This document shows positions 37,304-59,182 of a stretch of 64,000 nucleotides of DNA, one piece after another (position 1 is the stretch's first letter; the number at the start of each line of letters is the position of its first letter). The notes below the pieces were generated by a model. That model searched no databases. It was not told where the DNA came from and saw only the letters and a program-made list of their open reading frames with translations. The position numbers were made by a program, and so were the translations under genes. Source of the DNA: Bosea sp. (in: a-proteobacteria) (GTDB lineage: Bacteria; Pseudomonadota; Alphaproteobacteria; Rhizobiales; Beijerinckiaceae); NCBI GenBank assembly GCA_035998995.1, contig DASYHC010000112.1, positions 18,209-82,208 on the forward strand, written 5' to 3'.

Positions 37304-37318
37304 GACGGCGCCGTCCGG

Positions 37319-40081: not shown

Positions 40082-41331
40082 GCACGCTGGCGCAGCGGCA
40101 GGGTGATGCGCCCCGGCGCAGGGGGCTGACGATCTCCCATGCCGCGATCAAGCGCGGCACGCTGTGGCTCTTGCTGGCGGTGAGCTTCGTCGCGCTGGTC
40201 GAGCCCTCGCCTTACGAATTCGTCTTCCCGATCACGCTGCTGGTTTTTGCGATCACCGGCATCCGCTTCTCGCAGAAACTGCTGCCGATGGCGGTGCTTC
40301 TGCTCGTCTATAATATCGGCGGCGTGATCGCGCTGATCCCCTGGATGGACGAGGCGCCCTCGGTGCGCTTCACCGCCGTCTCGGTCTATCTGATGATCAC
40401 GGCGATCTTCTTCGCGGCGATCATGGCGGAGGACCCGCTCGGCCGGCTTGAGACGCTGCGCAAGGGCTATCTCTTCGCCGCCTGGTGCGCCGGCCTTGCC
40501 GCCGTGCTCGGCTATTTCGATGTCGGCGGTCTCTCAGGCGTCTTCACCTACGCCTCGCGGGCCTCGGGCACGTTCAAGGACCCGAACGTGCTCGGCCCCT
40601 TCCTGGTGCTGCCGCTGATCTACTTGCTGCATGCCGTGATCGTCGGCCGGATCGGGCTGGTGAAGGGCTTTCTGCTGCTGAGCATCCCGCTGCTGGCGCT
40701 GTTCCTGTCGTTCTCCCGCGGCGCCTGGGTCAATCTTGCGGTGTCGGCGCTGCTGATGACGGGGCTGACCTTCCTGACCTCGAGCAGCACGGCGCAGCGT
40801 GCCCGCATCGTCTTCCTGACGCTGGTGATGCTGGTGCTGCTGGTCGTGGCGCTCCTGATCGCGCTCTCCTTCGAGAACATCCGCGCCATCTTCGAGCTGC
40901 GCGCCAATCTCGACCAGGACTACGACCAGGGCGTCACCGGCCGCTTCGGCAATCAGCTGCGCTCGCTGCCGATGCTGCTCGACCTGCCGAACGGCTTCGG
41001 GCCGCTGCGCTTCCGCTTCCATTTCCCGGAAGACCCGCACAACGTCTACATCAACGGCTTTGCTTCCTATGGCTGGCTCGGCGGCTTCGCCTATCTGGCG
41101 CTGACCGCTGCGACCTGCATCGCCGGCTGGCGCGTCGTCTTCCGGCGCACGCCCTGGCAGGGCCATGCGATCGTGCTCTGGTCGGTGCTGTTCGTCACCA
41201 TCCTGCAGGGCTTCCAGATCGACACCGACCACTGGCGGCATTTCTACCTGATGCTCGGCCTGATCTGGGGCATGGCGGCTTTGCCCTCGCCTGCGCCAGG
41301 CGCTCAGCCTGCCTCGCGGTCGAGCGCGTAG
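40078..41331 (+). CDS. O-antigen ligase/polymerase family membrane protein (Wzy_C-like)
   Basis: About 10 TM helices with loop FLSFSRGAWVN typical of Wzy_C. TTG start overlaps the upstream stop. Confidence 0.8.
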   Translation: MSTLAQRQGDAPRRRGLTISHAAIKRGTLWLLLAVSFVALVEPSPYEFVFPITLLVFAITGIRFSQKLLPMAVLLLVYNIGGVIALIPWMDEAPSVRFTAVSVYLMITAIFFAAIMAEDPLGRLETLRKGYLFAAWCAGLAAVLGYFDVGGLSGVFTYASRASGTFKDPNVLGPFLVLPLIYLLHAVIVGRIGLVKGFLLLSIPLLALFLSFSRGAWVNLAVSALLMTGLTFLTSSSTAQRARIVFLTLVMLVLLVVALLIALSFENIRAIFELRANLDQDYDQGVTGRFGNQLRSLPMLLDLPNGFGPLRFRFHFPEDPHNVYINGFASYGWLGGFAYLALTAATCIAGWRVVFRRTPWQGHAIVLWSVLFVTILQGFQIDTDHWRHFYLMLGLIWGMAALPSPAPGAQPASRSSA

Positions 41332-41535: not shown

Positions 41536-41775
41536 GCGACCGCATATCGGGAATTGGCGAAGGCGTTCGCACGTTGGCGCCGCCCGAGCCGGTTTCGTGC
41601 AAAGCCTATGGGCCAGCAACGGCGCTCATCGCGCCACGGGTCGAGATCGCCAAGCGGGGGCCGGCATCAGCCCCGCAGCGACCCTAGTCATCAGGCGTAT
41701 GGCGTTAACACCTATGTGTGGCTGACCGGAGCCCACTGGCCTGCCATTGTACTCATGCCCTTCGGGCGTTCCTCC

Positions 41776-41826
41776 CCAAAAAACTAGCCCGGCTCCGCTT
41801 CTGCGGACCGGGCTTCTTTCGTTTCA
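41776..41826 (-). terminator. bidirectional hairpin terminator, probable original terminator of the split tRNA-Pro gene
   Basis: AGCCCGGCTCCGC-ttct-GCGGACCGGGCT (12 bp, 1 bulge). T6 on the minus strand and a T-rich tract on the plus strand. Confidence 0.5.
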
Positions 41827-41952
41827 ACTGGTGGCCTTGCTTGCGCCAATCGATCTCGCGGACCGGCAGAGTCACGCTACCGTTTCGGTCCGAATCCGGA
41901 CCTGCCAGCCGGCACGGCGGCTGTTCTAATCTACTGAAAGAAGGGAATAAAA

Positions 41953-41978
41953 TGGTCGGAGCGAGAGGATTTGAACCT
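41953..41978 (-). pseudogene. 3' fragment of chromosomal tRNA-Pro(GGG): T-loop, T-stem, acceptor, CCA
   Basis: The minus strand reads AGGTTCAAATCCTCTCGCTCCGACCA. This complements the 5' fragment at 53179-53236. Confidence 0.85.
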
Positions 41979-42000
41979 TATACGCCCTGGTTGTGTTCAG
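41978..42000 (+). repeat. left terminal inverted repeat of the element
   Basis: TTATACGCcctggttGTGTTCAG compared with the reverse complement of 53155-53177, TTATACGCgatcgaaGTGTTCAG (18/23 identical). Confidence 0.7.
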
Positions 42001-42035
42001 TGTGTATGTAGATGCATGATCGCCTCGCGGCGTTC

Positions 42036-42245
42036 TCAACGCAAGGGGCCTCGCCTAATGGGCTCCTCGTCGTCGCGAGGAGGGAGCGGCACTCGGTCTT
42101 CGAACCGTGGCAACGGTGGAATGCCCTTCAGCCGGTGGAAGCGGTCGGAGATGGCCCTGACTGTCCGCCTATAGTTTTCGTGCCGCATCGGGTCGAATGT
42201 GGAGAGACCCGAAGGACTGTCACCATGGTCGCGGATGGTCGACAT
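42036..42245 (-). CDS. small hypothetical ORF (doubtful)
   Basis: 69-aa ORF overlapping the GNAT gene end. No motif and poor support. Confidence 0.2.
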   Translation of the reverse strand: MSTIRDHGDSPSGLSTFDPMRHENYRRTVRAISDRFHRLKGIPPLPRFEDRVPLPPRDDEEPIRRGPLR

Positions 42246-43032
42246 CGTGAGCCTCCTTGTAGGTGTCGAACAGATCAAACCCATGCGTGTCCCTGAAACT
42301 GAACGCACCGAGCCATCTGGTGCCTCGGTGTAGCATAATAGCCTTGCACAGGGACACAGACGTATTCGTGCCTTGTGGGCCCGGCCCGGGCACGCTTTGC
42401 GTGAAGACCAGGAGATCGCGCGCCGCCCGTCTGTCCTTCAGTGCAAGCACGGCGGCGACCGCGGCGTGCGTTTCCTCGTCGATCTCGCCTTGGGCGAGGC
42501 AGAGTGCGATCTTCTGGGTTGCCGACGGCACGATGTGGAAACGCCACGACGTCTCGTCCGGGAGGAAACCCATACTGAGCCAAGCGTAGCGCCCGATGTC
42601 CTCGGCCTCGATGTCGATGCTTTCCAGGCCGATCTTCCGACCGAGCTCGATGAGATTGATCATGAGCCCCGTCCCGATGCCCCGGCCTTGCAGATCCGGG
42701 TTGACCTGCGTCTCCCCGTCGCGAGCGATGGCTTCCGTGACCTCGAACCGCTTCGATTTCAGGAAGAGACGCGTGGTGTCGGGAGCGATGCCGCTGATCT
42801 CGATCTCGAACATCTCGGCCTCATGATCCAGGTTCGAGATCACGCCACGGATCGCGCCGGGAGCCCCGTCAGCGATCGCGTCGACGAACTGCTCCGGGAA
42901 CAGGCCGGCGGTTTCGAGGAAGCGGTCGTTCCACCACCGGGCGGCCTCGACGGACAGAGGCGGGTCGAAGCTCACGTACTGGTTGTCCGTGAAGCGGTCC
43001 GGCCATCCCTTCGGCGTTGCGTCGTCTGTCAT
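42220..43032 (-). CDS. GNAT-like acetyltransferase-fold protein (island cargo)
   Basis: LQGRGIGTGLM fits the GNAT motif A Q/R-x-x-G-x-G/A, followed by GRYAWLSMGF. The long N- and C-terminal extensions have no recognisable motifs. Confidence 0.55.
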   Translation of the reverse strand: MTDDATPKGWPDRFTDNQYVSFDPPLSVEAARWWNDRFLETAGLFPEQFVDAIADGAPGAIRGVISNLDHEAEMFEIEISGIAPDTTRLFLKSKRFEVTEAIARDGETQVNPDLQGRGIGTGLMINLIELGRKIGLESIDIEAEDIGRYAWLSMGFLPDETSWRFHIVPSATQKIALCLAQGEIDEETHAAVAAVLALKDRRAARDLLVFTQSVPGPGPQGTNTSVSLCKAIMLHRGTRWLGAFSFRDTHGFDLFDTYKEAHDVDHPRPW

Positions 43033-43252
43033 GGCCCTATGATATGGGGATGATCGAAAGCGACAATCGCGCAGATGCCGCAGAAGGCCGCTCCGGGCTC
43101 ACCAGGGATCATGGGCCCGCCTGACCCGCTGCGCCGCGCCCCGGCTCCTTCCCTTGCACCGAGGTGCTCGCCGGCAAGGGACGCTGCGCTCTTCGCCCTT
43201 GCCGGCTCCGCGCCTCGATGACCGCGGGACGCCGCGACGGCGGCTCCGGGGA

Positions 43253-45298
43253 TCAGGCTACGGCGACCTGGGATGCGGGCGGGGACATCCCTACCCAATC
43301 GAAGCCGACCCGCCGGCGGTCGGATGCCCATGGCCTCTCCAGAGCGGTCGCCAACGCCGACCGTTCCCCGACGACGACGACTTGCCTCTCGGCCCGGGTC
43401 ACTGCGGTGTAGAGCCACGATGGATCCAGCACCATCGATCGGTAGACCGGCACGATGACCCGCGCGGCCTGGCTGCCCTGGCACTTGTGGCAGGTCACCG
43501 CGTAGGCGAGGGCAAGGTCGATGAGCGCCCCCATTTCCGCAGGCGGGCGCCGTTCGAGGTCGCCGGACAGGAATCGGAATGTCCTCCCGTCGATCTCGGC
43601 GACGACCACGCGCTCAACCTCGTCGACCTCGACGACCTTTCCCATCGACCCGTTGAACAGGCCCAGCTTGTAGTCGTTCCGGAGATGGATGCAGGGGTCG
43701 CCCGGGCTGAACCACTCGCCGAGATGGCCCTTGATGACCGGGAGCCGCCGGGCCTGCTGCCGCGATCGCTGGAACATCCTGTTGAGGGGCCCGACGCCGG
43801 CGGGGCCGTCGTTGGTCGCGGTCACGACGACGAGCTCGCCGGCGTCGAAGCCGCCCAGATCGGCGGCCACCTTCGCAACGACGTCCGGGATGCCGTCCAA
43901 CGGGGATTCGACGAAGGAGACGCCGTCGACGGCACCGGCGTATTCCGGCAAGGGCGGCCACCTGCGATCGCGGACGGCCGCCGCCACCGCCGGGATGCCC
44001 GAGGCCTCGGTCTGACGGTGCACGACGCGCAGCCTCGCCGCGATGGCGTCGTCCATGACGAGCCGGTGATAGACAAGGCCGAACGAGATCGGAGGCAGCT
44101 GGGCCGGGTCGCCGACAAACAGGATGCGGGCACGATCGGGCACGTGACGCAGGAGGCGGTAGAGCGTGGAGAGATCCACCATCGACGCCTCGTCGATCAC
44201 GATCAGGGTGCGGTCGTCGATGCTGGCCAGGGCCGCGAGCTTCGTCCGGATGCGCCCGGCCCGCTCGGGCTCGGCGTCCTGGAGCTCATCTTCCAGCCGC
44301 CGCGTCTCGTCGAGCTCCCCGAGCAATCGGGCGAGCGTCCGCGCGAGGCGTCCGGACGCCCGCGAGAGCCGCAACGCGGCCTTGCCGGACAGCGCCGCGA
44401 GCAGCGTCGAGCCGCCCGTCGCCTCCCACGCCCGACAGACCGCACGGGTCGTGTGGGTCTTGCCTACGCCCGCGCCGCCGAGAAGGCAGGACACCGGGTT
44501 GGCGAGAACCTTGAACACCGCCGCGGCCTGCTCCGGATGAAGCCCCGCGAAATCGATGAGGGAGCCCTTCTGGAGGTCCTTAAGGACGCTTCGCGGCAGG
44601 GGCTCGGCCAAGCGCTGGATGACGGCCAGCTTGGCGACGACGTCCTCTTCCATCGTCGCGCAGCCCGGGAACCGGAGGGTGCCGTCCGCATCGACGAGCG
44701 CGCCGTTGCGCAATCCCGCGGCGATGGCCTCGCCGACGATCGCATCGGCCTCGCGCGCCCCGAGGAGGCGGGCGACCTCGCCCGGCAGGTCGGACAGGGA
44801 AATGGCGGTGTCGCCCCGCGAGATACCGGCCTTCGCGACCGCGTCGATCGAGCCGACCAGCCGCCGGAGATCCCTGCGCGGGTCCGGGACGCCTTCCTCA
44901 CGCAGGACGGCAAGCCCCAGCCGGTCGACCTTGGACCAGGGGAGGAGCGGCACGAGACAGTAGGGGTTTGCCGAAAGCCGCGTCGCCGCGTCGTCGCCCA
45001 GGATGCGGCAGAGCCGGCGCGCGAAGGCCAGGCCGTCCACGCCCCGCTCGGACAGCCACGAGATCGTCGCGGCCTCCCCGGCGGCCTCCTTCCAGGCCGA
45101 GACGGCCATGGCGGCGAGGCGGAGGGCCAGCAGGGGCCGATCGCGATCGAGCGCGGCGGCGATGGCGGGCACCTTCGATTCGTCGGAGAGGACGGATGGA
45201 AGGCTATCGCCGAAGGCCTCGCCCAGGCGCCGCGCACGCTCGGGCCCGATGCCCTGCACCCGTGAGGCGACGTAGTCCCGGACAAGCGTCCCCGGCAT
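43253..45298 (-). CDS. RecD-like SF1 DNA helicase
   Basis: N-terminal HhH-like VQGIGPERARRLGEAFG. Walker A LLGGAGVGKTHT, Walker B LIVIDEASMVD, FVGDPAQLPPI, and C-terminal AYAVTCHKCQGSQA...LYTAVTRA. The ATG overlaps the upstream stop (ATGA). Confidence 0.85.
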   Translation of the reverse strand: MPGTLVRDYVASRVQGIGPERARRLGEAFGDSLPSVLSDESKVPAIAAALDRDRPLLALRLAAMAVSAWKEAAGEAATISWLSERGVDGLAFARRLCRILGDDAATRLSANPYCLVPLLPWSKVDRLGLAVLREEGVPDPRRDLRRLVGSIDAVAKAGISRGDTAISLSDLPGEVARLLGAREADAIVGEAIAAGLRNGALVDADGTLRFPGCATMEEDVVAKLAVIQRLAEPLPRSVLKDLQKGSLIDFAGLHPEQAAAVFKVLANPVSCLLGGAGVGKTHTTRAVCRAWEATGGSTLLAALSGKAALRLSRASGRLARTLARLLGELDETRRLEDELQDAEPERAGRIRTKLAALASIDDRTLIVIDEASMVDLSTLYRLLRHVPDRARILFVGDPAQLPPISFGLVYHRLVMDDAIAARLRVVHRQTEASGIPAVAAAVRDRRWPPLPEYAGAVDGVSFVESPLDGIPDVVAKVAADLGGFDAGELVVVTATNDGPAGVGPLNRMFQRSRQQARRLPVIKGHLGEWFSPGDPCIHLRNDYKLGLFNGSMGKVVEVDEVERVVVAEIDGRTFRFLSGDLERRPPAEMGALIDLALAYAVTCHKCQGSQAARVIVPVYRSMVLDPSWLYTAVTRAERQVVVVGERSALATALERPWASDRRRVGFDWVGMSPPASQVAVA

Positions 45299-45762
45299 CA
45301 GGCGAGGTCGCCGGTGCGGAGGACCATGCCCGTCTCGCCGAGGAGCCGGATCTGCTCCGTCAGCGAGGCGATCGTCCGCCGCTGACGCTCGATCAGGGCC
45401 TCCCGTTCGGCCAACGCCCGGGCCAGGTCGTCCCTGTCGGACTGGGCCCGGCCCAGGCGATCCTTGGCGGCCTTGTCGATGACGTCGGTCAACGCACGTG
45501 CCCCGATCGGCTTGACGCCTTGCCGGACGGCGACCGAGTTCACCAGCGCGGCGAGCTCGGGCTTCTTGTAGAAGTGCTGCTCCTGGGCCTGTGTGAGCCC
45601 GCAGACCTCGACGGCGAAGGCGCGGACGTTGACCTTGCCGTCGTCGGTCATCGGCAGCGTCGGTCGCCGTCCCTCCTCGGGCTGCGCCTCCCACGCCGCG
45701 TCGAGCGCCTCCAGCCGCTCGCCGACGAGAGGGACGAGGGTTTCGAGGATCGAGCGCGGCAT
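45298..45762 (-). CDS. small HTH-like/coiled-coil protein (second ginD-like gene)
   Basis: 154 aa. VNVRAFAVEVCGLTQAQEQHFYKKPELAALV, then heptad-rich LARALAEREALIERQRRTIASLTEQIRLL. Start shares 1 nt with the upstream stop (TGATG). Confidence 0.6.
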   Translation of the reverse strand: MPRSILETLVPLVGERLEALDAAWEAQPEEGRRPTLPMTDDGKVNVRAFAVEVCGLTQAQEQHFYKKPELAALVNSVAVRQGVKPIGARALTDVIDKAAKDRLGRAQSDRDDLARALAEREALIERQRRTIASLTEQIRLLGETGMVLRTGDLA

Positions 45763-46271
45763 CAGCCGTCCTCTCTCAACTGGACGACCGGTGCGGAAGG
45801 AGCCAGGCCGACGACATGGTCGGGGCGACCATTCCGGGCGTTCCGACCGGCACGGCGAGCCATGCTCTTGGCGTGCTGGATCTGCTTGTGTGCCACGTTG
45901 ACCGCGTCCTGGAGACGAGTGGCCAGGATCGCCTTTTCCTGCCGGAGCAGCGCGTTTTCCTGTCGGAGCGCGGCGATGGTGCTCTGGGCGTCGAGCTTCG
46001 GCGTGGGCGCCCGTGGTGCGGCGACCTGAGCCTCCATGCAGGCGAGCACTTCCCGCCGGACATCGGGGTAGGCGCAGCCCTCGATGCCGATCAGCGTCCG
46101 GCTGCGGTTGGCTTCCTTGGCGACGGAGGCGACGCTGATCCGAAGCCTGCCTTCGCGCTTTGCCTTGACGTTGTCCGGATGGAGCGGCTGCCCGCGCCGC
46201 AGACGACCCAGCGCCGCGCGCAGGTCGGCTCCGGCGTCGGGACCGGTTTGGATGTTCGTCTCACGCGGCAT
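45762..46271 (-). CDS. small HTH-like/coiled-coil protein (ginD-like position)
   Basis: GGGAGG RBS precedes the ATG at 46271 (GTG at 46277 also possible). ISVASVAKEANRSRTLIG, then the zipper IAALRQENALLRQEKAILATRL. Overlaps the recombinase C stop. Confidence 0.6.
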   Translation of the reverse strand: MPRETNIQTGPDAGADLRAALGRLRRGQPLHPDNVKAKREGRLRISVASVAKEANRSRTLIGIEGCAYPDVRREVLACMEAQVAAPRAPTPKLDAQSTIAALRQENALLRQEKAILATRLQDAVNVAHKQIQHAKSMARRAGRNARNGRPDHVVGLAPSAPVVQLREDG

Positions 46272-48288
46272 CGGCACCTCCCATCACGACATTCATCTTG
46301 CGAAGGATCGCCTCCGCGGTCGCCACGCGCTCGGCGGCCACCGCGGCGATGGCGTGCTCGCCGGCGGCGCGGCCCTCGTCCCGAAGCCGGAGGTTCGTCG
46401 CGAGCCGCTCCTTCCAGAAGGGTTCGTGGGTCTCGGCGACGAGCAGGTTTGAGCAGGAGCAGCAGACGCCCGGCTGCCGGTGCGAATAGCGCGGCCGTCG
46501 CGCGGCGAGGTCGAAGGCGCCGACGGCCTGATGGTGGCAACGGGCGGTCTCCGGCCGGAACAGGCAGGCGCCCCATGCCGCCCCCCAGACGCGCACGTCG
46601 TCCTCCGCCACCGCGGAGGTGAGCCGGGCGAGGCGGTCGGCATCGGTGCCTTCGGTTCCCATCAGCGCCTCGATCGATCCGGCGTTCTCCCGGATCGTGT
46701 CGGCCATCTTGCCGGCGACGCGACCGGTCCCGTTGACGGCGTCGAACAGGAGGCGGGCGGCCTCGCGAGTCGCGACGTCGTCGAGCAGGCCTAGGAGCTC
46801 GGGGTCCGATCCGAGGTATCCCTGCTCAGTCATGGCCAGGGACATGTGCTTGAAGTGGTCGGACAAGGCGGGCAGCAACCTCTCGTCCGAGCGGACGACG
46901 TATTGCGCGAAGGACTTGCGCCATTGGTGTGTGCTCAAACGCCAATCCCGGAAGCCGTCCGGCAAGTCCACGAAGTCTCGCATGAACCGGACCTGGCCTT
47001 CGCGTAGGTCGTCGCTCAATACGCCGGCGGGCCGGGACTCGGCCGCCGGGTCGTGCCAGAAGGCTCTGGACGACAGGATGAGGTCCGACAGGCTCCGCGC
47101 TTCGCGCCAACGCCGGAAAAGGCGCTCCAGCACCAGGATCGCCTCGACGGGCGGCGGGATCACCGCCGTGCCGACCGGGCGGGAGCCCGCCACCCACTCG
47201 ACCTCCTGCCATTGGTGCCGTCCCTTGAAGACGCGACCGCGGACGTAGAAGATCTCGTTGAGGCCGCTCGCCGAGGGCCTGACCTCTACGCAGGCCGGCC
47301 AGCCCGTTTCCGGATCGACCGGCTCGGCCTTCAGGCCGGCGACCTCGCTGATGCGCATCCCGAGCATGGACTGGAGCACGATGGTGCACGCCGAGCGCAG
47401 GTCGTGGATGAGCCGGCGCATGCGCCGGATCTCGCTTAGTTCCAGCTCCTCGCCCGACTTAGTCCATCCAAGCAACGGATCGATCGCGGGGTTGCGGTCC
47501 TCGCTCCACATCCGGTTGAGGTCGCGATTGAGGCGGTAGCTGTAGGAATTGGACATGCGGGAGGTCTCGCCGTTCTTGGCGTGATAGGCCCGCGCCCACT
47601 CCACGATCAGGTCCGCGCGCTTCCCGAGCCAGCACAGGGCCTCGGGGACGACGGCGAGGAAGACGGGGTCCGGCACGGGCGGGATCGCCCCGGCGACCCG
47701 GGAGCCCAGCGTCCTCGCGACGGCGTAGGCGGCCTCGCCGCCAAAAGGATGCTCGGGCATGACCGCGCCGTCCGTGCCCGACAGCGCGGCGCGCTGTTCA
47801 TGGATGCGGACCAAGACGTCGAGATGGACGGCGAGCTTGATGGCCGTGACGTCTTCCTCCGAGCCGTTCGCCTTGTCGGCGACGAGATGCGCGACGAAGT
47901 CCCGCGCTAGATCGGCGTCGAGCTCCGCGAAGCTCGACACGCCCGCCGTCGCCATCCAGCGGACCAGGTAGCGAAGGCCGAACCCGATATCGGCGATCGT
48001 GGCGTCCTTGAGCTGCGCCCCGCGGTTGTTGGCCGATCTCAAGGACCAGACGAAGCGTCGGCACATTTCGAGCAGCCGGGACCACTTCGGATCGGTGAAG
48101 ACCGACCCGTCGGGCATGTCGAAGTCCCAGAGCACGACGGGCTCGCGCTTTCCCGCCGTTGTGGACGGAAATCGCCAAGAAGGATCTCCCCAGAGGCTCT
48201 TCGCGGAGACCTGGATGATACTGATCGGCATCCTCGCGATGCGCACGGGAGCCTGTTGGCGGTCGAGCGTGACGAGCCTGTTTACCAT
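46261..48288 (-). CDS. tyrosine recombinase C (large, 675 aa)
   Basis: SMLGMRISEVAGL (Arg I), STHQWRKSFAQY (H-x-x-R), DHFKHMSLAMTEQGYLG (His/Tyr). Cys-rich C-terminal tail (C..C-H-H...CCSC). Confidence 0.85.
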   Translation of the reverse strand: MVNRLVTLDRQQAPVRIARMPISIIQVSAKSLWGDPSWRFPSTTAGKREPVVLWDFDMPDGSVFTDPKWSRLLEMCRRFVWSLRSANNRGAQLKDATIADIGFGLRYLVRWMATAGVSSFAELDADLARDFVAHLVADKANGSEEDVTAIKLAVHLDVLVRIHEQRAALSGTDGAVMPEHPFGGEAAYAVARTLGSRVAGAIPPVPDPVFLAVVPEALCWLGKRADLIVEWARAYHAKNGETSRMSNSYSYRLNRDLNRMWSEDRNPAIDPLLGWTKSGEELELSEIRRMRRLIHDLRSACTIVLQSMLGMRISEVAGLKAEPVDPETGWPACVEVRPSASGLNEIFYVRGRVFKGRHQWQEVEWVAGSRPVGTAVIPPPVEAILVLERLFRRWREARSLSDLILSSRAFWHDPAAESRPAGVLSDDLREGQVRFMRDFVDLPDGFRDWRLSTHQWRKSFAQYVVRSDERLLPALSDHFKHMSLAMTEQGYLGSDPELLGLLDDVATREAARLLFDAVNGTGRVAGKMADTIRENAGSIEALMGTEGTDADRLARLTSAVAEDDVRVWGAAWGACLFRPETARCHHQAVGAFDLAARRPRYSHRQPGVCCSCSNLLVAETHEPFWKERLATNLRLRDEGRAAGEHAIAAVAAERVATAEAILRKMNVVMGGADAA

Positions 48289-48292
48289 CGTC

Positions 48293-50152
48293 TCACTCCA
48301 GATCCGGCAGCGGCGGCAAAGTCACCGACGAAGCCTTGTGCACCGTCGCGGCGGGGAACCGCGGCAGCCAAACCGACCGCAGGGCCTCGGCCTGGGGCAG
48401 CCAGACATCCATCCACCGGACGGGATGCACGCGCGACCGGGCGACTTCCATCTGCGCCGCAAGCTGGGACAGGCGCAGGAAAACCTTGGGATCGCCGACG
48501 TCGACGCAGGCGAGCGGACACGCCGGGCATTGCCCGTAGGCGGTGCAAGCCTGCCCATCGCGCTGACCGGGCAACGGCGAGAACAGCGGCTCGAAACAGG
48601 AGAAGCCCGGCGTCGCTGCGCTGCCCCGGCCAGCGTCGAGGAAGCCGTTTCGCGTGTCGGCACGACCGCCGGTGGCGACGAAGCGCTCCCGCCACGCCAT
48701 GGCGGTGGCGAGCGCCTCACGGCCACGCTCCCTCATGGTGGACGTCTCGTAGGAGCGGTGTGTCGTCGACACCGTAGCATGGCCCAGCAAGACCTGGTTC
48801 GCCTTGATGTCGCCTCCGCTCGCGATATCGACCAGATCGGATGCCGTCTTGCGCATCATCGACATCGTGAAGGCCGGCAGCCCATAGTCCGCGATGAAGG
48901 TGGCGAGGCCGCGATGCCAGAAACCGTCGCCGGCGGCGCCTTCCCCCGCGTCGAAGCCGCCATATGTCTCGGCGCGCGGGGTCCAGAAGACGAACACCCG
49001 GTCCCGGTGGCGCTCGTCCACGTGCCGGCGCGTGAAGCGGGTGAGCCGTTCCAGGGTCCGAAGCAAGTTGACCGGCGCCTCGGGGGCCGAGAGCCCTGCC
49101 GCAAATGAGCGGTAGTGCTTCCGCTTGGCTCGCGCCTTCCGCGCGCCGACCCGCCATCTCGCTTCGCCGAAAAGCGGATGGCTCCGTTCGACGTCATGCC
49201 ATTCCAAGGTCAACAGGCCTTCGGGGTTGAAGGCCCCGTCTATGGCCAGGAGCAATGCGAAGGGCACGATCGCGCGCGGCGAGAGATGCAGCGCGGACGC
49301 GACCTCCGCGTAGGAGCCGTAAGGGGACACCATCGAACGGGCGAGGCCGTAATCGCTCGCGGCGAGCAGGTCGCGCGCGGGGATGCGCGAGTCGTAGCGC
49401 TGGACGAGCGCGGCGAGCCGCACGACGGGGTCGCGATAGGGCGTTACGGAGCGGGCGCCGGGAGATGGCAACCTATCCGGAGACATCAGTTCGGCCCTGT
49501 CCGCGATCTCCATCCGCGCGACCGTCTCCGCGATATCGTCGATGCATGCCCTCCTGATCAGGGACAGGTCGAGATGGGAAACGGCCTCGCGCGGCCGGAC
49601 CTGACGGTGGTTCAGAGGCCAGGGATTGCGCCTGAAGCCGAAGTCCCGATCGCGGATGGGTGCGCCTCGCGCCGATGACCGCAGATGGTCGAACAGGTCC
49701 GCGACCGCACGGTAGCGCTGCGTCTTGGTCAGCCCCGACCAAGGTGTCCCATCCGACTCGCCGGTGTTCAGCCACGCCTCGAAGCGTGCGATCGCGTCCG
49801 CGTCGATGTCAGCCAACGTTTCGACGGACGAGCCTTCGAGCAGGAAGGCAAGAAAGGGGTTCAGGATCTTCGCGATGCCCTGCCGGGTCGACCGGGCGAG
49901 AAGCCCCTTGGTCGACAAGTACTCAGCGACGGCGAGACCGATGTCGCGCCTGATCAGCCAGTTCGATAGGTCGATCTCCTGCACGCCTCCGGCGCAGGTC
50001 GCGTCGCGGAAGCGCACCAACAGCCGATCCGGCTGCTCCACGACGCCGAAGATGACCGGCAGCCTCGCGGGAACCGCTTCCTTCGCCTTCGGCAGCAGAT
50101 GGGCGGGAACGGCGCGCCCGGCGCGTCGCCTGAGCGGTTCAGGCGAGCGCAT
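48293..50152 (-). CDS. tyrosine recombinase-family protein B (619 aa, atypical active site)
   Basis: MSMMRKTASDL and LLGHATVSTTHRSYE give a recombinase box II. Box I reads DGAFNPEGLL with no Arg. Cys-rich tail C..C..C..C. Confidence 0.75.
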   Translation of the reverse strand: MRSPEPLRRRAGRAVPAHLLPKAKEAVPARLPVIFGVVEQPDRLLVRFRDATCAGGVQEIDLSNWLIRRDIGLAVAEYLSTKGLLARSTRQGIAKILNPFLAFLLEGSSVETLADIDADAIARFEAWLNTGESDGTPWSGLTKTQRYRAVADLFDHLRSSARGAPIRDRDFGFRRNPWPLNHRQVRPREAVSHLDLSLIRRACIDDIAETVARMEIADRAELMSPDRLPSPGARSVTPYRDPVVRLAALVQRYDSRIPARDLLAASDYGLARSMVSPYGSYAEVASALHLSPRAIVPFALLLAIDGAFNPEGLLTLEWHDVERSHPLFGEARWRVGARKARAKRKHYRSFAAGLSAPEAPVNLLRTLERLTRFTRRHVDERHRDRVFVFWTPRAETYGGFDAGEGAAGDGFWHRGLATFIADYGLPAFTMSMMRKTASDLVDIASGGDIKANQVLLGHATVSTTHRSYETSTMRERGREALATAMAWRERFVATGGRADTRNGFLDAGRGSAATPGFSCFEPLFSPLPGQRDGQACTAYGQCPACPLACVDVGDPKVFLRLSQLAAQMEVARSRVHPVRWMDVWLPQAEALRSVWLPRFPAATVHKASSVTLPPLPDLE

Positions 50153-51614
50153 CGAGTCGCTCCTTCAAGAGGCGCGCGAAGGTGTCGGAGATCTCCGGCT
50201 CCCGGGTCTCGACGTGGCGCAGGTAGATGTCCTGGGTCGTGCTCAGGCGCTTGTGGCCCAGCCGCGCCTGGAGCTTCTTCCAGGGGGCGGGGTTGCCGGC
50301 CTGGATTTCGGCCCAATAGAATTGGCAGGCGAAGGTGTGCCGCAGGTCGTGAAAGCTGTGCTTCGCGACGTCGCGCGCTTCGAGGATCTCCTCGCCGTGT
50401 TCGTCGATGGCCGGCGACCCCGTCGAAGGATCGATCCGATAGGTGGTCTCCGTCCGCGTCAGCCCGGATGCGAGCACGGAGGCATGGAAGGCGCGCATCG
50501 CCGTCGCCGGCGACGTCTTGCCTCCGACGTCCCGGCTTGTGGATCGAATTCCGTTCAGGAAGAGCGCATTGGAGGCGTTGCGGCCACGCTGCTTCGCCGA
50601 CCTGACGACCGACGCGCGCTCGCCATCGATGTAGGCTAGCAGAGCCTTCACAAGGAAAGCTGGGATCACGACCGTGCGGGGAACCCCGCCCTTGGCGACG
50701 GTGATCCGCAAGGGCAAGGGCCGCCAGCGATCGGACAGGTCCTCGCCCCGTGCGACGTCGAGGATCTGGTAGATCGTCAGGCCGACGACTTCCTCAACGC
50801 GCATGCCGGTGTAGAGCGATGTCTCGGCGATCAGCCGGTCACGGGTCGCGCGAGCGTCGTTGTCGTCGATGTCGTATGGGGAGGCCCCTAAACCGTCGAG
50901 GATGGCCGTGAGGTCTCCCATCGCGATCGGGTTCACGTGCTCGTCCACCGCCGCCGGTCGTGGACGGAGAGGGCTCGCCGCGGCGACGCGGATGCCGCCG
51001 GTATGAGGCAGGAACGCCCTGTCGATGTCCACTAGGCGCTTGGTCCCCGCTTCCACGACAGGGCATTCCTCGACAAGGCCGTGCCGGTGCGACCAGCGAT
51101 ACAGCGCCTCGACCGTGCCGATCCGGCGCGAGATCGTCGCGGACGAAAAACGGCGGCCACGGGTGGATACCCCCTCGACCAAGGCTTGCGCATAGGCGCG
51201 CAGGTCATCCGCCCCTACCGCGTCCCATCCCAGGCCGTGCAAGCGCAGATACGTCCACCAATGGACGAGATCGTCGGCATAGGCGGTCTGGGTCTTCTGC
51301 CACCGTCCGCGGCGGGCGGGGACGTGGCAGTGGTCCAGCAGAAACAAGTTGGCCGGCTCGATAGGATTGAGATCGTCGTCGAAGAGCATGACGAACCCCG
51401 CCGGCGTGCGGAGTCCCCGCATGGTAGCGCCGTCGAAATCGCCGGCCTCGTCGACGGAGTAGTCGACGGCCCTGATGCGATGGATCGTCGCCATGGCGAA
51501 GTTCTGATTGTCGTTGTCGCCGTCCACGCCCCGCACCGCGCATTGCTTCCCGAGGCGAGAGACGTCGACGACGCTCGCGTTCCGTTCGGGTTCGATCCTC
51601 GCTCGGGCGACCAT
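50139..51614 (-). CDS. tyrosine recombinase A (491 aa)
   Basis: SLYTGMRVEEVVGL (Arg I), HSFHDLRHTFA (H-x-x-R), ARLGHKRLSTTQDIYL (His, Tyr). 14-nt overlap with the recombinase B start. Confidence 0.85.
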   Translation of the reverse strand: MVARARIEPERNASVVDVSRLGKQCAVRGVDGDNDNQNFAMATIHRIRAVDYSVDEAGDFDGATMRGLRTPAGFVMLFDDDLNPIEPANLFLLDHCHVPARRGRWQKTQTAYADDLVHWWTYLRLHGLGWDAVGADDLRAYAQALVEGVSTRGRRFSSATISRRIGTVEALYRWSHRHGLVEECPVVEAGTKRLVDIDRAFLPHTGGIRVAAASPLRPRPAAVDEHVNPIAMGDLTAILDGLGASPYDIDDNDARATRDRLIAETSLYTGMRVEEVVGLTIYQILDVARGEDLSDRWRPLPLRITVAKGGVPRTVVIPAFLVKALLAYIDGERASVVRSAKQRGRNASNALFLNGIRSTSRDVGGKTSPATAMRAFHASVLASGLTRTETTYRIDPSTGSPAIDEHGEEILEARDVAKHSFHDLRHTFACQFYWAEIQAGNPAPWKKLQARLGHKRLSTTQDIYLRHVETREPEISDTFARLLKERLDALA

Positions 51615-51637
51615 GACTCGCGCAGCTCCAGAAACCG

Positions 51638-52600
51638 TTACGATCGAGCCCGGCCCAAGGGCCGAATTCGGTCATGGTTATCGAAATCGAGGCCCGCGAG
51701 CGTCGTCGCAGGGGCGAGCGCCGTCGATCGCTCGATCAGTCTCGCCAACTCGACGGCCACCAAGGCGGCGTCGCGTGCGTGCTCGCTGCCGAGCGACACG
51801 GCCTGCGCCGACTTCAGCACGGCATGGGCTGTCGGATCGAGCGTCGCGACCGGCGCCGCCAGCCCGTCCCGTCCGACGACGAAGCCAGCGCGCGGCGCTC
51901 CTTCGAGCGCCGAGGAGACGGCCCGGATCGCGTCGAGCTCGGGGAGCGTGGCGATGAAGGCTTCCAGCACTTCCGAGGCGTCGTGGACGTGGATGCGGAG
52001 GCCGCTGGATCCGACGATGGCGGTGCCATCGGCGTGCCAGGCTTCGTCGGGCCGGGCCGCCCGAAGGGCTCCGCCAATCGAAGGCAGGACGTCCGACACC
52101 AACCCGTCCGGTACGAGAAGGTCGATGTCGGCCAGCTCTGCCTCGACCCGAACGCGGGCCTCGACGGCATGGGCGTGGGTGGCGCAGCCTCCTAGGAGCA
52201 TGCATGCCTGCCAGAGGCCCGCGCGGTCGAAGGCGCGAAAGACGTCGGCGACCGGTTGGGGCACCAGCGCGAGGCGGAACGCACGCGCGGCGCGCGACAC
52301 ATCGGCCATGCGGGGGCCGAGGCTGCGACGCTCGGCTGCGACGCTCTCGCGAGCGGCATAGAAATCGCCATACTCGGCCTCCGTCGCCGGCGAACGACGA
52401 CCGCGAGACCGCGCCTGCTTCTTCTTGGTGGTCGGATCGGTCCAGAAGCGGGTCAGGTAGTCCTGCCCGGCGACGTTCTTCCACTGAAAGCCGCCGCCCA
52501 ACCCTTCCTCGCGCTGAAGGAGGGATCGATGCAGGCGATCGACCGTCATCACGTCGTCGAGAACGCGAGACTGCTCGGCAGAGAAGGGAATGAAATGCAT
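51638..52600 (-). CDS. nucleotidyltransferase-fold protein (GSU2403-family-like, from memory)
   Basis: GGGFQWKNVAGQDYLTRFW...SRGRRSPATE...LLGGCATHAHAVE...ADIDLLV resembles that family as I recall it. ATG at 52600 or 52612. First gene of the recombinase operon. Confidence 0.5.
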   Translation of the reverse strand: MHFIPFSAEQSRVLDDVMTVDRLHRSLLQREEGLGGGFQWKNVAGQDYLTRFWTDPTTKKKQARSRGRRSPATEAEYGDFYAARESVAAERRSLGPRMADVSRAARAFRLALVPQPVADVFRAFDRAGLWQACMLLGGCATHAHAVEARVRVEAELADIDLLVPDGLVSDVLPSIGGALRAARPDEAWHADGTAIVGSSGLRIHVHDASEVLEAFIATLPELDAIRAVSSALEGAPRAGFVVGRDGLAAPVATLDPTAHAVLKSAQAVSLGSEHARDAALVAVELARLIERSTALAPATTLAGLDFDNHDRIRPLGRARS

Positions 52601-52641
52601 TTTGATACCCATAATGGATCGAACCAATATTGGGTATCAAA
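52601..52641. promoter_or_regulatory. perfect 11-bp inverted repeat flanking a T-loop-like core
   Basis: TTTGATACCCA-taatGGATCGAACCaatat-TGGGTATCAAA, directly at the 5' end of the recombinase operon. Confidence 0.6.
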
Positions 52642-52692
52642 TCGCTCCAGACAATGCGCGTCGCGGTTGTTCGTTAACGGGTGGTGAAGAAG

Positions 52693-52767
52693 TGGTCTGG
52701 GATCTCGGGATCGAACCGAGGGCCTGCACGCCCCAAACGCGCCGCTCTACCGCTGAGCTAATCCCAG
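52693..52767 (-). tRNA. tRNA-Pro (anticodon UGG), island-borne
   Basis: The minus strand folds as CTGGGAT TA GCTC AGCGGTA GAGC G GCGCG TTTGGGG CGTGC AGGCC CTCGG TTCGATC CCGAG ATCCCAG A CCA. C1-G72 and A73 are Pro identity elements. Confidence 0.9.
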
Positions 52768-52964
52768 GAAAGGGATCGCCGAAACGGAATTAGGAGTGTT
52801 CAGTCAAGGCGAGAGAAGGCGGGCGTCTGAGCACCTGCAATCTCGAAAAAGCCGTTCAGGATGAATGGAGTAGCGCCGATTGAACATGTGCAGAGCATGT
52901 TCAATAATTGCAGATCGCTGTGCGAACTGGGCGGCAAATTCAGGCCAGTGGTGGTGGAGGGGGA

Positions 52965-53006
52965 GATGATGGGCTGGACCCACATAAAGCAGTCCAGCCC
53001 ATCATC
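52965..53006. other. 15-bp perfect stem hairpin between the two island tRNAs
   Basis: GATGATGGGCTGGAC-N12-GTCCAGCCCATCATC. No U-tract, so function is unknown. Confidence 0.5.
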
Positions 53007-53052
53007 AGCAGAGCGGCGATTTCCAGCCAAGTGCTTGAAATCATTGACTTTT

Positions 53053-53130
53053 TGGTCGGAGTAGCAGGATTTGAACCTGCGACCCCATGTCCCCCAGACA
53101 TGTGCGCTAACCGGGCTGCGCTATACTCCG
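53053..53130 (-). tRNA. tRNA-Pro (anticodon GGG), island-borne replacement copy
   Basis: CGGAGTA TA GCGC AGCCCGGTTA GCGC A CATGT CTGGGGG ACATG GGGTC GCAGG TTCAAAT CCTGC TACTCCG A CCA. It differs from the split host copy only by compensated stem changes. Confidence 0.9.
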
Positions 53131-53154
53131 TCAAGGAAACCGCTCTGAAAACTC

Positions 53155-53177
53155 CTGAACACTTCGATCGCGTATAA
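53155..53177 (-). repeat. right terminal inverted repeat of the element
   Basis: Plus strand is ctgaacacttcgatcgcgtataa. See the left repeat at 41978-42000. Confidence 0.7.
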
Positions 53178-53178
53178 C

Positions 53179-53236
53179 GAACCTCCGACCCCTTGTCCCC
53201 CAGACAAGTGCGCTAACCGGGCTGCGCTACGCTCCG
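53179..53236 (-). pseudogene. 5' fragment (nt 1-58) of chromosomal tRNA-Pro(GGG)
   Basis: The minus strand reads CGGAGCG TA GCGC AGCCCGGTTA GCGC A CTTGT CTGGGGG ACAAG GGGTC GGAGG TTC and then breaks. Confidence 0.85.
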
Positions 53237-53245
53237 ACGGGTCGG

Positions 53246-53274
53246 CTTATAGAGCGAGCGTCGCCGCGATGCAA
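53246..53274 (-). promoter_or_regulatory. sigma-70-like promoter of the (now split) tRNA-Pro gene
   Basis: Minus strand TTGCAT-N17-TATAAG. The -10 element ends 9 nt before tRNA nt 1. Confidence 0.55.
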
Positions 53275-56943: not shown

Positions 56944-57573
56944 TCAGGCCGCGAGCGCCGGCCGCTTCGACAGCCAGGCCCGCACCAAGCCAAGATCCGC
57001 CTGCGACAGGCCATGCCCGGTCGGCAGGCTGCGGTGCTCGACTGAAGCCCCCGCCCCGCTGAGCGTCGCCGCCAGCCGCGCCGCATTCTCCTCCGGGATG
57101 ATCGGGTCGAAGCTGCCAGAGACGATCAGCACGGGCTTGCCGCCCAGCGCCGCTGCCGGCGGCTTGGCGAAGGGCGACATCGCTCGCAACAGGACCGCCC
57201 CCGACAGCACCTCCGGCCGCAGCAGCAGCATCGCGGCGGCGATGTTGGCGCCGTTCGAGAAGCCGAGCGCGATCGGCGCCGGCAACCCGTACTCCGCCCG
57301 CGCCTGCTCGACGAAATCGGCAAGCTCATGCGTGCGCCGGGTGAGATCGTCCTCGTCGAAGACGCCCTCGGCCAGACGGCGGAAGAAGCGCGGCATGCCG
57401 GCTTCGAGCGTGCGCCCGCGCGGCGAGAGCAGCGCCGCCCCTGGCGCGAGCGTGCGCCCGAGCGGCAGAAGGTCGTTCTCGTCGCCGCCGGTGCCATGCA
57501 GCAGCAGGAGCGGCGCCTGGCTGGCAGCGCTCGCCGGCTCGAAGCGATGAATGAAGGTTTCGGTCGTGCTCAT
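56944..57573 (-). CDS. alpha/beta hydrolase (phospholipase/carboxylesterase family, MhqD-like)
   Basis: LLLLHGTGGDENDL and GFSNGANIAA (nucleophile elbow). Confidence 0.85.
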   Translation of the reverse strand: MSTTETFIHRFEPASAASQAPLLLLHGTGGDENDLLPLGRTLAPGAALLSPRGRTLEAGMPRFFRRLAEGVFDEDDLTRRTHELADFVEQARAEYGLPAPIALGFSNGANIAAAMLLLRPEVLSGAVLLRAMSPFAKPPAAALGGKPVLIVSGSFDPIIPEENAARLAATLSGAGASVEHRSLPTGHGLSQADLGLVRAWLSKRPALAA

Positions 57574-57638
57574 GGCACGCCTCCTTTCTGAGAGTTTTCG
57601 CAAAGGCGCCCCGCCCGAAGGCGGGGCGCCTGTACGGT

Positions 57639-58571
57639 TCAGGCGAGTGCCGGCAGCACAGCCTCGATCTCGGCGCGGCGTGTCTCGTACTGCGCCGGCA
57701 GCTTGAGCGTTCCGCCGAGGTCGTCCGCCGGCTCGTCGACAGCGAAGCCGGGGGCGTCAGTCGCGATCTCGAACAGCACGCCGCCGGGCTCACGGACGTA
57801 GACGGAGCGGAAATAGTTCCGATCCTTCTGCTCGGTGGGGCGCAGGCCGAATGTGTCGGCCAGCGTCTTCACCATGCGGGCCTGCTCCGCGTCGTCGCCG
57901 GCGCGGAAGGCGATGTGATGCACCGAGCCCGCGCCCATCCTGGCCGGCAGGAAGCCGCCGGCGGCGCGCAGGTCGACGACGCCGCCATGGGCAGCACCTT
58001 CGGCCCGCATGCGGACAGTGTCGCCCTCGCGACCGGCCTCGACGAAGCCGAACACGTCACGCAGGATCGCGGCGGTCGTCTCGGTCTTGTCGAGCAGCAG
58101 CGTGACGCCGTGGAAGCCGCGGATCGCGGATTCGGCCGGCACCTCGCCATTGTCCCAGGCCGGCTCGATCTCGCTGCCGGGCACCGCGACCAAAGCGAGC
58201 CGCATGCCGTCCGGATCGCGGAAGCTCAGCACGGTCTCGCCGAAGCGCTTCTGCGGCGCATCATGGGCGACGCCGTTGGCGACGAGGCGATGCGTCCAGT
58301 AGCCGACCGCTGCTTCCGGGATGCGGAAGGTGGTCAACTCCGTCTCGCCGACGCCAAGCCGGCCGGGCGCGACATGCTCCCAGGGAAAGAAGGTCAGGAT
58401 GGTGCCCGGATTGCCGCCGGCATCGCCGAAATAGAGATGCCAGGTGGTCGGATCGTCGAAGTTCACCGTCTTCTTCACCAGGCGCAGGCCAAGCACGCGG
58501 CTGTAGAAGTCGAGGTTGCGACGCGCCGGGCCGGCGATGGCGGTGACGTGGTGGATGCCGTTGATCTGCAT
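57639..58571 (-). CDS. ring-cleaving dioxygenase (tandem VOC domains, MhqO-like)
   Basis: MQINGIHHVTAIAGPARRNLDFYSRVLGLRLVKKTVNFDDP..WHLYFGD and a second VOC half, GSVHHIAFR. Confidence 0.85.
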   Translation of the reverse strand: MQINGIHHVTAIAGPARRNLDFYSRVLGLRLVKKTVNFDDPTTWHLYFGDAGGNPGTILTFFPWEHVAPGRLGVGETELTTFRIPEAAVGYWTHRLVANGVAHDAPQKRFGETVLSFRDPDGMRLALVAVPGSEIEPAWDNGEVPAESAIRGFHGVTLLLDKTETTAAILRDVFGFVEAGREGDTVRMRAEGAAHGGVVDLRAAGGFLPARMGAGSVHHIAFRAGDDAEQARMVKTLADTFGLRPTEQKDRNYFRSVYVREPGGVLFEIATDAPGFAVDEPADDLGGTLKLPAQYETRRAEIEAVLPALA

Positions 58572-58756
58572 GATGTCGTCCTCCGGGCTGCAGGACGCTG
58601 CCCTCGTTGGGCACAAAGATGATTGCGGTTCGGCAAAATGCCAGATCGAGTTCATTGCACCATAGCAATGTTATTCTCTGAAATTGCCAATTTGAATTGC
58701 CAAATCGAAATCGCCATTCTCTGCCGCAGACCAAACCGGTCCTTCGGAGAAAGACC

Positions 58757-59182
58757 ATGATCGACACCCGTTTCGCCCCTTATGGCGCCCTGACCCTGCG
58801 AGTCGCCCTCGGCGTCATGTTCATCGCCCACGCCTATCTGAAGCTTGCCGTCTTCACGGTTCCCGGCTTCGCCGGCTTCCTTGGCCAGGTCGGCCTGCCC
58901 GGTTTCCTCGCCTGGCCGATCATCCTGGCGGAAGTGATCGGCGGCCTTGCCATCCTCACCGGCTTCTATGGCCGCTATGTCTCGGTCCTGCTGCTGCCGG
59001 TCCTGCTGGGCGCTCTCGTCATCCACGCCCCCAATGGCTGGGTCTTCAACGCCCCGAACGGCGGCTGGGAATATCCCGCCTTCCTCGCCCTCACCGCCTT
59101 CGCCCATGTCCTGATCGGCGACGGCGCGCTGGCGCTACGTCCGGCCGGTGTTTCGGTCGCCGCCAAGCCCGCTTTGGCCTGA
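58757..59182 (+). CDS. DoxX family membrane protein (MhqP-like)
   Basis: LRVALGVMFIAHAYLKL...AEVIGGLAILTG. Confidence 0.85.
   Translation: MIDTRFAPYGALTLRVALGVMFIAHAYLKLAVFTVPGFAGFLGQVGLPGFLAWPIILAEVIGGLAILTGFYGRYVSVLLLPVLLGALVIHAPNGWVFNAPNGGWEYPAFLALTAFAHVLIGDGALALRPAGVSVAAKPALA

Follow-up and report, generated by a model that had tools for sequence, protein, structure and literature searches.

Genomic islands that target tRNA genes classically carry the tRNA segment from the crossover point to the 3′ end, and their integration regenerates a hybrid gene (Islander, PMC4383910). Genomic islands that carry three integrases (GInts; Bardaji et al. 2017, PMC5385486), also called the Tn6571 family (PMC10121019), use protein-coding genes (among them ssb and one for an ABC transporter) as insertion sites and have repeats of 10-14 nt, and neither the former paper nor its tables mention a tRNA (PMC5385486). 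Strand-biased circularizing integrative elements, or SEs, have been reported for Gammaproteobacteria, and Tn554 for the Firmicutes genera Staphylococcus and Enterococcus; the paper comparing SEs with GInts reports no tRNA target and no carried tRNA. This study investigated an 11.2-kb island (positions 41978-53178, genes on the minus strand) in a 64-kb stretch of contig DASYHC010000112.1, analysed at its full length and referred to here as the window. The island splits a host tRNA-Pro(GGG) gene in its T-arm and carries a complete tRNA-Pro(GGG) gene of its own just inside one end. The best explanation, and in our judgement a probable one, is that the carried gene is a built-in replacement for the gene that the island breaks.

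The boundaries of the island were defined by the two fragments of the host gene and by the inverted repeats that they flank:

53236 to 53179, minus strand: 5′ fragment of the host tRNA-Pro(GGG), tRNA positions 1-58, starting CGGAGCG and ending GGAGGTTC in the T-arm
53155 to 53178, minus strand: left end of the island, a variable base R (here G) and then TTATACG-N8-GTGTTCAG (53177 to 53155), an inverted repeat of the right end
41978 to 42000, minus strand: right end of the island, CTGAACAC-N8-CGTATAA (42000 to 41978), an inverted repeat of the left end
41977 to 41953, minus strand: displaced 3′ fragment of the host tRNA-Pro(GGG), GGTTCAAATCCTCTCGCTCCGACCA, with stems complementary to those of the 5′ fragment

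The two host fragments lie 11.2 kb apart, pair via the acceptor strands CGGAGCG/CGCTCCG, and, once rejoined, were identified as tRNA-Pro(GGG) by ARAGORN. The 25-mer GGTTCAAATCCTCTCGCTCCGACCA had a single exact match in the window and no match in 100 shuffles. The 5′ fragment runs directly into non-tRNA sequence (GTTATACGCG, which starts with TTATACG after the variable base), and ARAGORN called no tRNA in the host 5′ fragment plus spacer. The insertion breaks the host tRNA gene without rebuilding it, because the inverted-repeat ends of the island flank a 5-6-bp overlap, (G/A)GTTC(R). The insertion point is the GGTTC of the T-arm (tRNA positions 53-57): at the left junction, host GGAGGTTC is followed by G and then TTATACG, and the right junction reads CGTATAA, GGTTC, AAATCC. 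The ends are imperfect inverted repeats of approximately 23 bp with the general form TTATAYG plus GTGTTCAG, and the left-end motif was found at the corresponding junction in all related loci (designated by L numbers). Across the loci, the base after the left-junction GGTTC (A/G) and the first right-junction base (G/A) vary independently of the host sequence, and the right junction reads AGTTCG in L002, L006, and L025; a crossover or coupling region of 5-6 bp would give such variability.

We rejected the opposite assignment (intact tRNA from the host, fragments from the element), since the two fragments pair with one another rather than with the intact gene and lie on either side of the inverted-repeat ends. 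The GC content is equal in the island and its flanks, and composition is therefore uninformative on a foreign origin; the distal end is only mildly richer in AT than the island.

The island-borne gene is as follows:

53053 to 53130, minus strand: island tRNA-Pro(GGG), intact, 78 nt, CCA encoded (ARAGORN; Rfam RF00005, 63.7 bits, E 3e-12)

ARAGORN called two tRNA genes in the whole window, both on the minus strand. For this one it assigned the anticodon ggg, and the Rfam score compares with a gathering score of 29, which identifies the gene as a proline tRNA. A 48-nt gap (53178-53131) separates the island tRNA from the host 5′ fragment. Compared with the rebuilt host tRNA, the island tRNA differs at 9 of 78 positions (6, 7, 30, 44, 52, and 66-69), all located in the acceptor, anticodon, and T stems, and every pair is kept by compensation. 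The identity elements of bacterial tRNA-Pro are C1-G72, A73, G35, G36, and G37; the sequence and the alignment revealed the full set in the island tRNA, with C1-G72 and A73 kept between the two genes. A preliminary description of the locus had reported an intact 78-nt tRNA on the same strand 48 nt from the host fragment, compensated differences confined to three stems, and retention of C1-G72 and A73, and ARAGORN, Rfam, and the alignment confirmed these points. It had also stated that the island tRNA retains the targeted sequence, and GGATTTGAACCT indeed has two occurrences in the window, one each in the island tRNA and the host 3′ fragment.

To assess the structure across lineages, two host tRNA-Pro(GGG) sequences were aligned with five different island tRNAs. 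All 147 of 147 pair cells were paired, and 10 pairs had changed on both sides; the controls were far lower, with 0 of 500 shuffles and no slid register coming close. These results support structural constraint on the island tRNA. The acceptor 5′ strands among the island lineages are CGGAGTA, CGGGCAG, CGGAGTG, and CGGAATG. Between island variants, the two tRNAs carried by the island are the most conserved stretch of the region, and the intervening DNA diverges. The tRNA-Pro(GGG) of the window island is identical in L023 and differs by one T-loop base in L025 and L028. An identical island tRNA is present in islands at different host contexts; the tRNA therefore belongs to the island and travels with it.

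We further compared the layout of the locus with that of related islands. In at least four island lineages, whose first recombinase (IntA) is 37-96% identical to that of the window, the same order was found: a host tRNA-Pro 5′ fragment ending in GGTTC, a TTATAYG end, a spacer of 36-50 nt, and an intact, co-oriented tRNA-Pro(GGG). The preliminary description had proposed a survey of homologous islands for an end-proximal tRNA, and the feature proved to be conserved. The shared order is present in the following loci:

L001, Microvirga arvi: IntA 52% identical
L002, an alphaproteobacterial metagenome-assembled genome: IntA 43% identical
L004, Sinorhizobium saheli: IntA 37% identical
L063, a metagenome contig
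L023-L030 and L036, close relatives forming the clade of the window: IntA 77-96% identical

L063 was the only genuine locus among the 31 stretches that a metagenome scan with the left-junction pattern returned, the others being chance matches. Exactly one tRNA, matching the broken isoacceptor, is carried by each of L001, L002, L004, and L063.

The position of the tRNA is not tied to that of the recombinase genes. In an inverted group (L006, L007, L013, and L015), the recombinase end adjoins the tRNA 3′ fragment, which gives the module an inverted orientation with respect to the tRNA. Both ends are visible in L004, a small member of this group; its sole recombinase gene lies at the 3′-fragment end on the opposite strand, and its intact tRNA lies at the far end from the recombinase, beside the host 5′ fragment and co-oriented with it. 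In L063, the tRNA end is followed by 7 kb of cargo without recombinases. The layouts of L004 and L063 therefore indicate that the position of the tRNA goes with the promoter side of the host gene rather than with the recombinase operon. The tRNA is also intact in decayed islands, namely L002, which lacks C and D, the third and fourth genes of the recombination module (A and B are left), and L004, which lacks B, C, and D (A is left).

Some of these loci exhibited further features. The cargo beside the tRNA end of L063 (110-6137, minus strand) encodes the TOTE domains DUF7017, S1CSD-TOTE-2, and TBP-TOTE, a NERD helicase, and a SMEK-domain protein, and looks like defence cargo. The carried tRNA of L002 (8960-9036) is 100% identical to the flanking host 58-nt 5′ fragment (8856-8913) and to 24 nt of the 3′ fragment (19763-19786), which suggests gene conversion or a very close relative as donor; the resulting 58-nt direct repeat could permit deletion of the left end of the island. 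In L003 (Oricola), the right junction is clean in a tRNA-Pro 3′ fragment (16021-16052), and the 10 kb upstream yielded neither a carried tRNA nor a host 5′ fragment. The left side of this locus (8970-9230) holds a minus-strand open reading frame (ORF) that, by its appearance, we take to resemble an insertion sequence (IS) transposase.

The second tRNA gene of the window also lies in the island:

52693 to 52767, minus strand: second island tRNA, tRNA-Pro(UGG) (ARAGORN; Rfam 56.2 bits)

This tRNA is identical in the window, L023, L025, L027, and L036. In L028-L030, its counterpart (8848-8922 in L028) has CGG as its anticodon, one D-stem position without a partner, and a reduced Rfam score (40.9 bits versus 56.2 bits). 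The T-loop of the second tRNA (GGTTCGATCC) is unlike the insertion target. Together, the anticodons GGG and UGG would read all four proline codons by standard wobble. The target is likewise not confined to one gene, and in L023-L026 and L036 the same island was found inside a tRNA-Pro(CGG) gene within a tRNA array. Exactly the same IntA protein (P0002) occurs in tRNA-Pro(CGG) for L025 and L026 and in tRNA-Pro(GGG) for L027, which fits a two-tRNA kit. Because the island is found in both CGG and GGG genes and carries two tRNAs, the replacement is not always like-for-like. The built-in replacement put forward in the preliminary description is thus supported across lineages in a refined form, and is better termed a tRNA-Pro kit on an element targeting the T-arm common to proline tRNAs.

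The array in L023 (8012-8364 and 19740-21203) comprises Tyr, Leu, Leu, the broken Pro(CGG), the island, Pro(GGG), His, Leu, Leu, Leu, and Pro(UGG). A small HisRS-like ORF is also contained in the tRNA array, and an IS605-type TnpB gene is inserted in L036 (6682-6856).

Three sites in the window bear on the expression of the carried tRNA and of the other island genes:

53246 to 53274, minus strand: host promoter-like site TTGCAT-N17-TATAAG, ending 9 nt before the start of the host tRNA
52965 to 53006, minus strand: strong hairpin 3′ of the island tRNA, without a U-tract
52611 to 52640, minus strand: promoter-like site TTGATA-N18-CATTAT, inside a conserved palindrome located just upstream of the first ORF of the island

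The host site lies where the preliminary description had placed it (53274-53246), the fragment start at 53236 having been implicit there. Its hexamers and their spacing are kept upstream of the orthologous fragment in L028, and the 17-nt spacer sequence has diverged. A generic sigma-70 scan misses this site, the −10 element of which ends in G, as the scan demands T at the last −10 position; the generic scan also found no sigma-70-like site in the 48-nt spacer of the window, and the generic promoter and terminator scan found no terminators. The carried tRNA is always co-oriented with the broken host gene and on its promoter side, and in the tRNA-array cases it is co-oriented with the array. A 101-nt stretch holding the hairpin has a minimum free energy of −41.3 kcal/mol (z −4.6), and compensating changes preserve its stem in L025 and L028. 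The conserved palindrome, TTGATACC-N20-GGGTATCAA (52611-52680, minus strand), overlaps the promoter-like site and looks like an operator for the island's own genes; the recombinase and cargo genes thus appear to have their own control region. The preliminary description had suggested that the host promoter is captured both by the tRNA and by the recombinase operon further downstream. The orientation, the spacer, and the kept hexamers make it plausible that the host promoter drives the carried tRNA, but its feeding of the recombinase operon is poorly supported because of the strong hairpin after the tRNA and the island's own promoter-like palindrome.

The mechanism that we propose for built-in replacement is as follows. 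An element with a four-gene recombination module inserts in the T-arm of a host tRNA-Pro gene, splitting the gene without rebuilding it, and brings a complete tRNA-Pro(GGG) 36-50 nt inside the end adjoining the host 5′ fragment. The window lineage also brings a second tRNA-Pro (UGG or CGG). The asymmetric overlap would fix the insertion orientation, and the carried tRNA would therefore always lie directly downstream of the promoter of the broken gene, in the same orientation as that gene. From there, the host promoter would most likely give rise to a precursor comprising the host fragment, the spacer, and the tRNA, which RNase P and 3′ processing would trim, and the recombinase and cargo genes would be under their own control region further in. 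Precise excision between the left and right attachment sites (attL × attR) would restore the host tRNA.

Other roles for the carried tRNAs were weighed against built-in replacement. They could be ordinary cargo, supplementing translation or acting against defences that target tRNAs (a role proposed for phage tRNAs), and have no link to the broken gene; the two tRNA-Pro genes of the window island, the duplication of a nearby intact host GGG gene by the carried one in L023 and L025, and the defence-like cargo of related islands, such as the TOTE system in L063, would agree with such a role. Every carried tRNA, however, is of the same amino-acid type as the target, the position and orientation beside the 5′ half of the broken gene are fixed in four lineages and in both operon orientations, the single tRNA of L001, L002, L004, and L063 matches the broken isoacceptor, and the carried tRNA is kept after the mobility genes decay. 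We therefore regard ordinary cargo as unlikely. Even less likely is that the tRNA acts mainly as a DNA element, whether as an accessory site bound by the recombinase, as a decoy or immunity copy of the target, or as a landing pad for further copies. The island tRNA does retain the target T-arm GGTTCRAATCC approximately 50-100 bp from the recombination core, and the preliminary description had suggested from the retained sequence that it could serve as a landing site for another copy. A DNA-site role, however, needs the T-arm only, yet all four stems co-vary in a manner that keeps the cloverleaf and the proline identity elements (C1-G72, A73, and G35-G37). No nested or tandem insertion was found in the approximately 20 informative loci, and the sole end-to-end junction, in L096, has no tRNA. 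The reading to which we give very little weight is that the tRNA is a neutral relic of an ancestral capture of flanking host DNA. Approximately 40 nt after the island tRNA (AATGATTTCAAG..TTAGCT) resemble the sequence downstream of chromosomal tRNA-Pro in L023 and L013, suggesting capture from a chromosome, but capture accounts for the origin of the tRNA and not for its maintenance; the tRNA is intact with compensatory changes down to 37% IntA identity while the adjacent non-coding DNA diverges, and it outlives the recombinase genes.

Several points nevertheless weigh against built-in replacement. The islands of L023 and L025 break a CGG gene, and the carried GGG is redundant there, given an intact host tRNA-Pro(GGG) approximately 90 nt past the island. 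Another copy of tRNA-Pro(GGG) may exist in the host genome, or tRNA-Pro(UGG) may cover the loss; in Salmonella, UGG is the only proline isoacceptor known to be essential. The D-stem mismatch and lower score in L028 suggest a looser constraint on the second tRNA. We infer from the sequence that the island tRNA would be transcribed from the host promoter, processed, and aminoacylated. The inverted type was seen whole in L004 alone, L006, L007, L013, and L015 not having been followed to the far end. Finally, no tRNA or fragment was found in the available sequence of L005, L008-L012, L014, L016-L019, L031-L035, and L096-L098, and some of these contigs end near the module; L037, too, either stopped close to the module or had no tRNA features.

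The remaining genes of the island, in order from the tRNA end, are all on the minus strand:

51638 to 52627, minus strand: ORF with an NTP_transf_8 nucleotidyltransferase domain, 329 aa (Pfam PF12281, 28.1 bits), present in L001 and all close relatives
50139 to 51614, minus strand: IntA (recombinase A), a tyrosine recombinase of 491 aa (Pfam Phage_integrase and SAM-like domains)
48293 to 50152, minus strand: recombinase-like B, 619 aa, with family-conserved R434, H458, and Y468 and a C-terminal Cys cluster, collinear in 20+ loci
46261 to 48288, minus strand: recombinase-like C, 675 aa, with invariant R312, K355, R457, H481, and Y491 (22-27 homologues) and a Cys cluster
45762 to 46277, minus strand: small protein D, approximately 170 aa, in the GinD/TnpC position, collinear in relatives
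43253 to 45762, minus strand: 154-aa ORF and RecD2-like SF1B helicase (Pfam, NCBIfam), cargo or accessory
42220 to 43032, minus strand: 270-aa ORF, distal cargo, with a weak GNAT match (Pfam) and gene calls in relatives

The genes A-B-C-D are collinear in more than 20 loci, neighbouring genes overlap or abut, and relatives of the module were found in Alpha-, Beta-, and Gammaproteobacteria. The family alignment revealed a full conserved catalytic set in IntA (R272, K308, H422-x-x-R425, H454, and Y464). In both B and C, a conserved Arg...Arg...His...Tyr pattern precedes a conserved cluster of cysteines. The clusters (C519, C536, C542, and C545 in B; C575, C584, C609, and C612 in C) were matched by no Pfam model and may be zinc-binding domains. 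Searches with B, C, and D against Pfam, NCBIfam, and PDB gave sub-threshold matches only. A profile-profile comparison linked C to B (92% probability) and both of them weakly to A, and a profile search with C in a set of 5.8 billion proteins returned 37 proteins, unnamed or generically named and hence uninformative on GInt membership. C was also 24% identical over 93% of its length (E 1e-21) to the third gene product of a four-gene module on Pseudomonas aeruginosa megaplasmids. In that module, a recombinase gene is followed by a split second gene and by genes for a 637-aa recombinase and a 125-aa protein. The profiles of A, B, C, and D matched the corresponding genes of this module (E 1.5e-43, 8e-32, 9e-45, and 1e-5, respectively). 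These matches suggest that the window module is collinear with, and distantly homologous to, the Pseudomonas module, which has a GInt/Tn6571-like architecture.

Further observations concern individual genes and ends of the family. The RecD2-like helicase is an 813-aa ORF in the window and is called as 681 aa in relatives; together with the 154-aa ORF, it comes after D in the divergent islands L001, L009, L031, and L097, and the two may possibly be element backbone rather than cargo. Between L025 and the window, C is 99% identical and IntA only 87% identical, which indicates recombination between island variants. In L096, the C of which is 43% identical, an undivided site lies directly after D (9380-9470), CTGAACA...CCATATAA-GATTCA-TTATATG...TGTTCA, and this could be an unintegrated attachment site or a tandem junction. 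The ends of the L096 contig do not overlap and are not bridged by an ORF, and the site has no tRNA. Viral contigs were scanned for the left junction and for a junction of the attP type, with chance matches only, in AT-rich contigs.

On the host side, a match to the alphaproteobacterial small RNA family mmgR (Rfam RF00519) lies just past the host 3′ fragment (41750-41828, plus strand) with 36.8 bits against a gathering score of 41 (E 1e-4), and this sub-threshold match suggests that the host lies in or near Rhizobiales. The L028 host is syntenic with that of the window at 75-79% nucleotide identity (window 30746-41285 and 56978-59108; L028 8-7339 and 19333-21475). In L028, the split tRNA and the island are oppositely oriented relative to the flanking genes, compared with the window; either an inversion of the locus or a distinct local history of the tRNA gene would account for this. 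A search for mmgR in L028 did not find it, and the inversion is left unexplained by it.

Among the described systems, the window element most resembles GInts, with which it shares site-specific insertion and, at one end, an operon of three consecutive tyrosine-recombinase-like genes plus a small fourth one, with cargo beyond it. GInts have imperfect direct repeats of 10-14 nt and an AT-rich distal end, and they excise as a circle in a process that needs all four genes; the flanking repeat of the window element is only 5-6 bp. In contrast to GInts, it has a tRNA T-arm target, a 5-6-bp overlap, clear terminal inverted repeats, and a whole replacement tRNA. GinC has been reported to lack catalytic residues, whereas C of the window keeps the Arg/Lys/Arg/His/Tyr set; the two GInt papers disagree on how much of the catalytic motif GinC lacks. 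GInt membership is defined by three consecutive BlastP hits to GinA, GinB, and GinC (Bardaji et al., PMC5385486). Having been compared with the P. aeruginosa module rather than with the type GinABCD sequences, the element appears to be GInt-like and is not a proven member. Similar to classical tRNA-targeting islands, it is a tyrosine-recombinase element that splits a tRNA gene (here in the T-loop), with the displaced fragment marking one end, and the cell would still end up with a working tRNA, here through the carried gene. In contrast to the regenerated hybrid gene of such islands, the host 5′ half in the window is joined to non-tRNA DNA, and a separate complete gene lies 48 nt downstream.

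The likeness to SEs and Tn554 consists of a multi-recombinase module, a small TnpC/Srap-like protein, and imperfect terminal inverted repeats. The 6-bp junction sequence of SEs and Tn554, which need not match the target, also resembles the variable R and (G/A) junction bases of the window family. SEs, however, have the gene order intA-tfp-intB-srap with a non-catalytic second protein, whereas B of the window keeps R434, H458, and Y468, and Tn554 has two recombinases (TnpA and TnpB) and TnpC, whereas the window has three recombinase-like proteins and D. Recombinase-in-trio (RIT) elements likewise have three adjacent tyrosine recombinase genes between inverted repeats. Their recombinases are approximately 300-400 aa each, their terminal repeats are long, and we know of no fourth small gene in them; by contrast, the window proteins have 491, 619, and 675 aa and are accompanied by the conserved D, and the repeats are approximately 23 bp. 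Whole-tRNA replacement was not found for GInt, SE, RIT, Tn554, or other multi-recombinase islands in the full-text literature, subscription-only journals lying outside its coverage. The window element is GInt-like with a tRNA T-arm target and a break-and-replace design for which we found no published precedent.

Textbook islands escape harm by rebuilding the tRNA from a carried 3′ part, whereas the window family brings a whole gene behind the promoter of the broken one. If this interpretation is correct, island finders that seek a regenerated tRNA and a displaced fragment could misplace the boundaries of the window island, and the short defined target and fixed orientation could serve genome engineering in Alphaproteobacteria. 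The target range and design logic of multi-recombinase (GInt-type) islands would be wider than described, and the carried tRNAs would explain how one short T-arm target gives access to several isoacceptor genes. On a broader proposal, the evidence leaves us evenly divided: that a GInt-like lineage in Alphaproteobacteria has specialised in break-and-replace at several tRNA-Pro isoacceptors, never rebuilding the target and bringing one or two complete tRNA-Pro genes placed for expression from the promoter of the broken gene, and that the foreign tRNA stays resident after the recombinases decay, as in L002 and L004, which would make these elements a route for the horizontal replacement of core tRNAs. 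Built-in replacement, if confirmed, would itself provide a concrete mechanism for the horizontal turnover of core tRNA genes.

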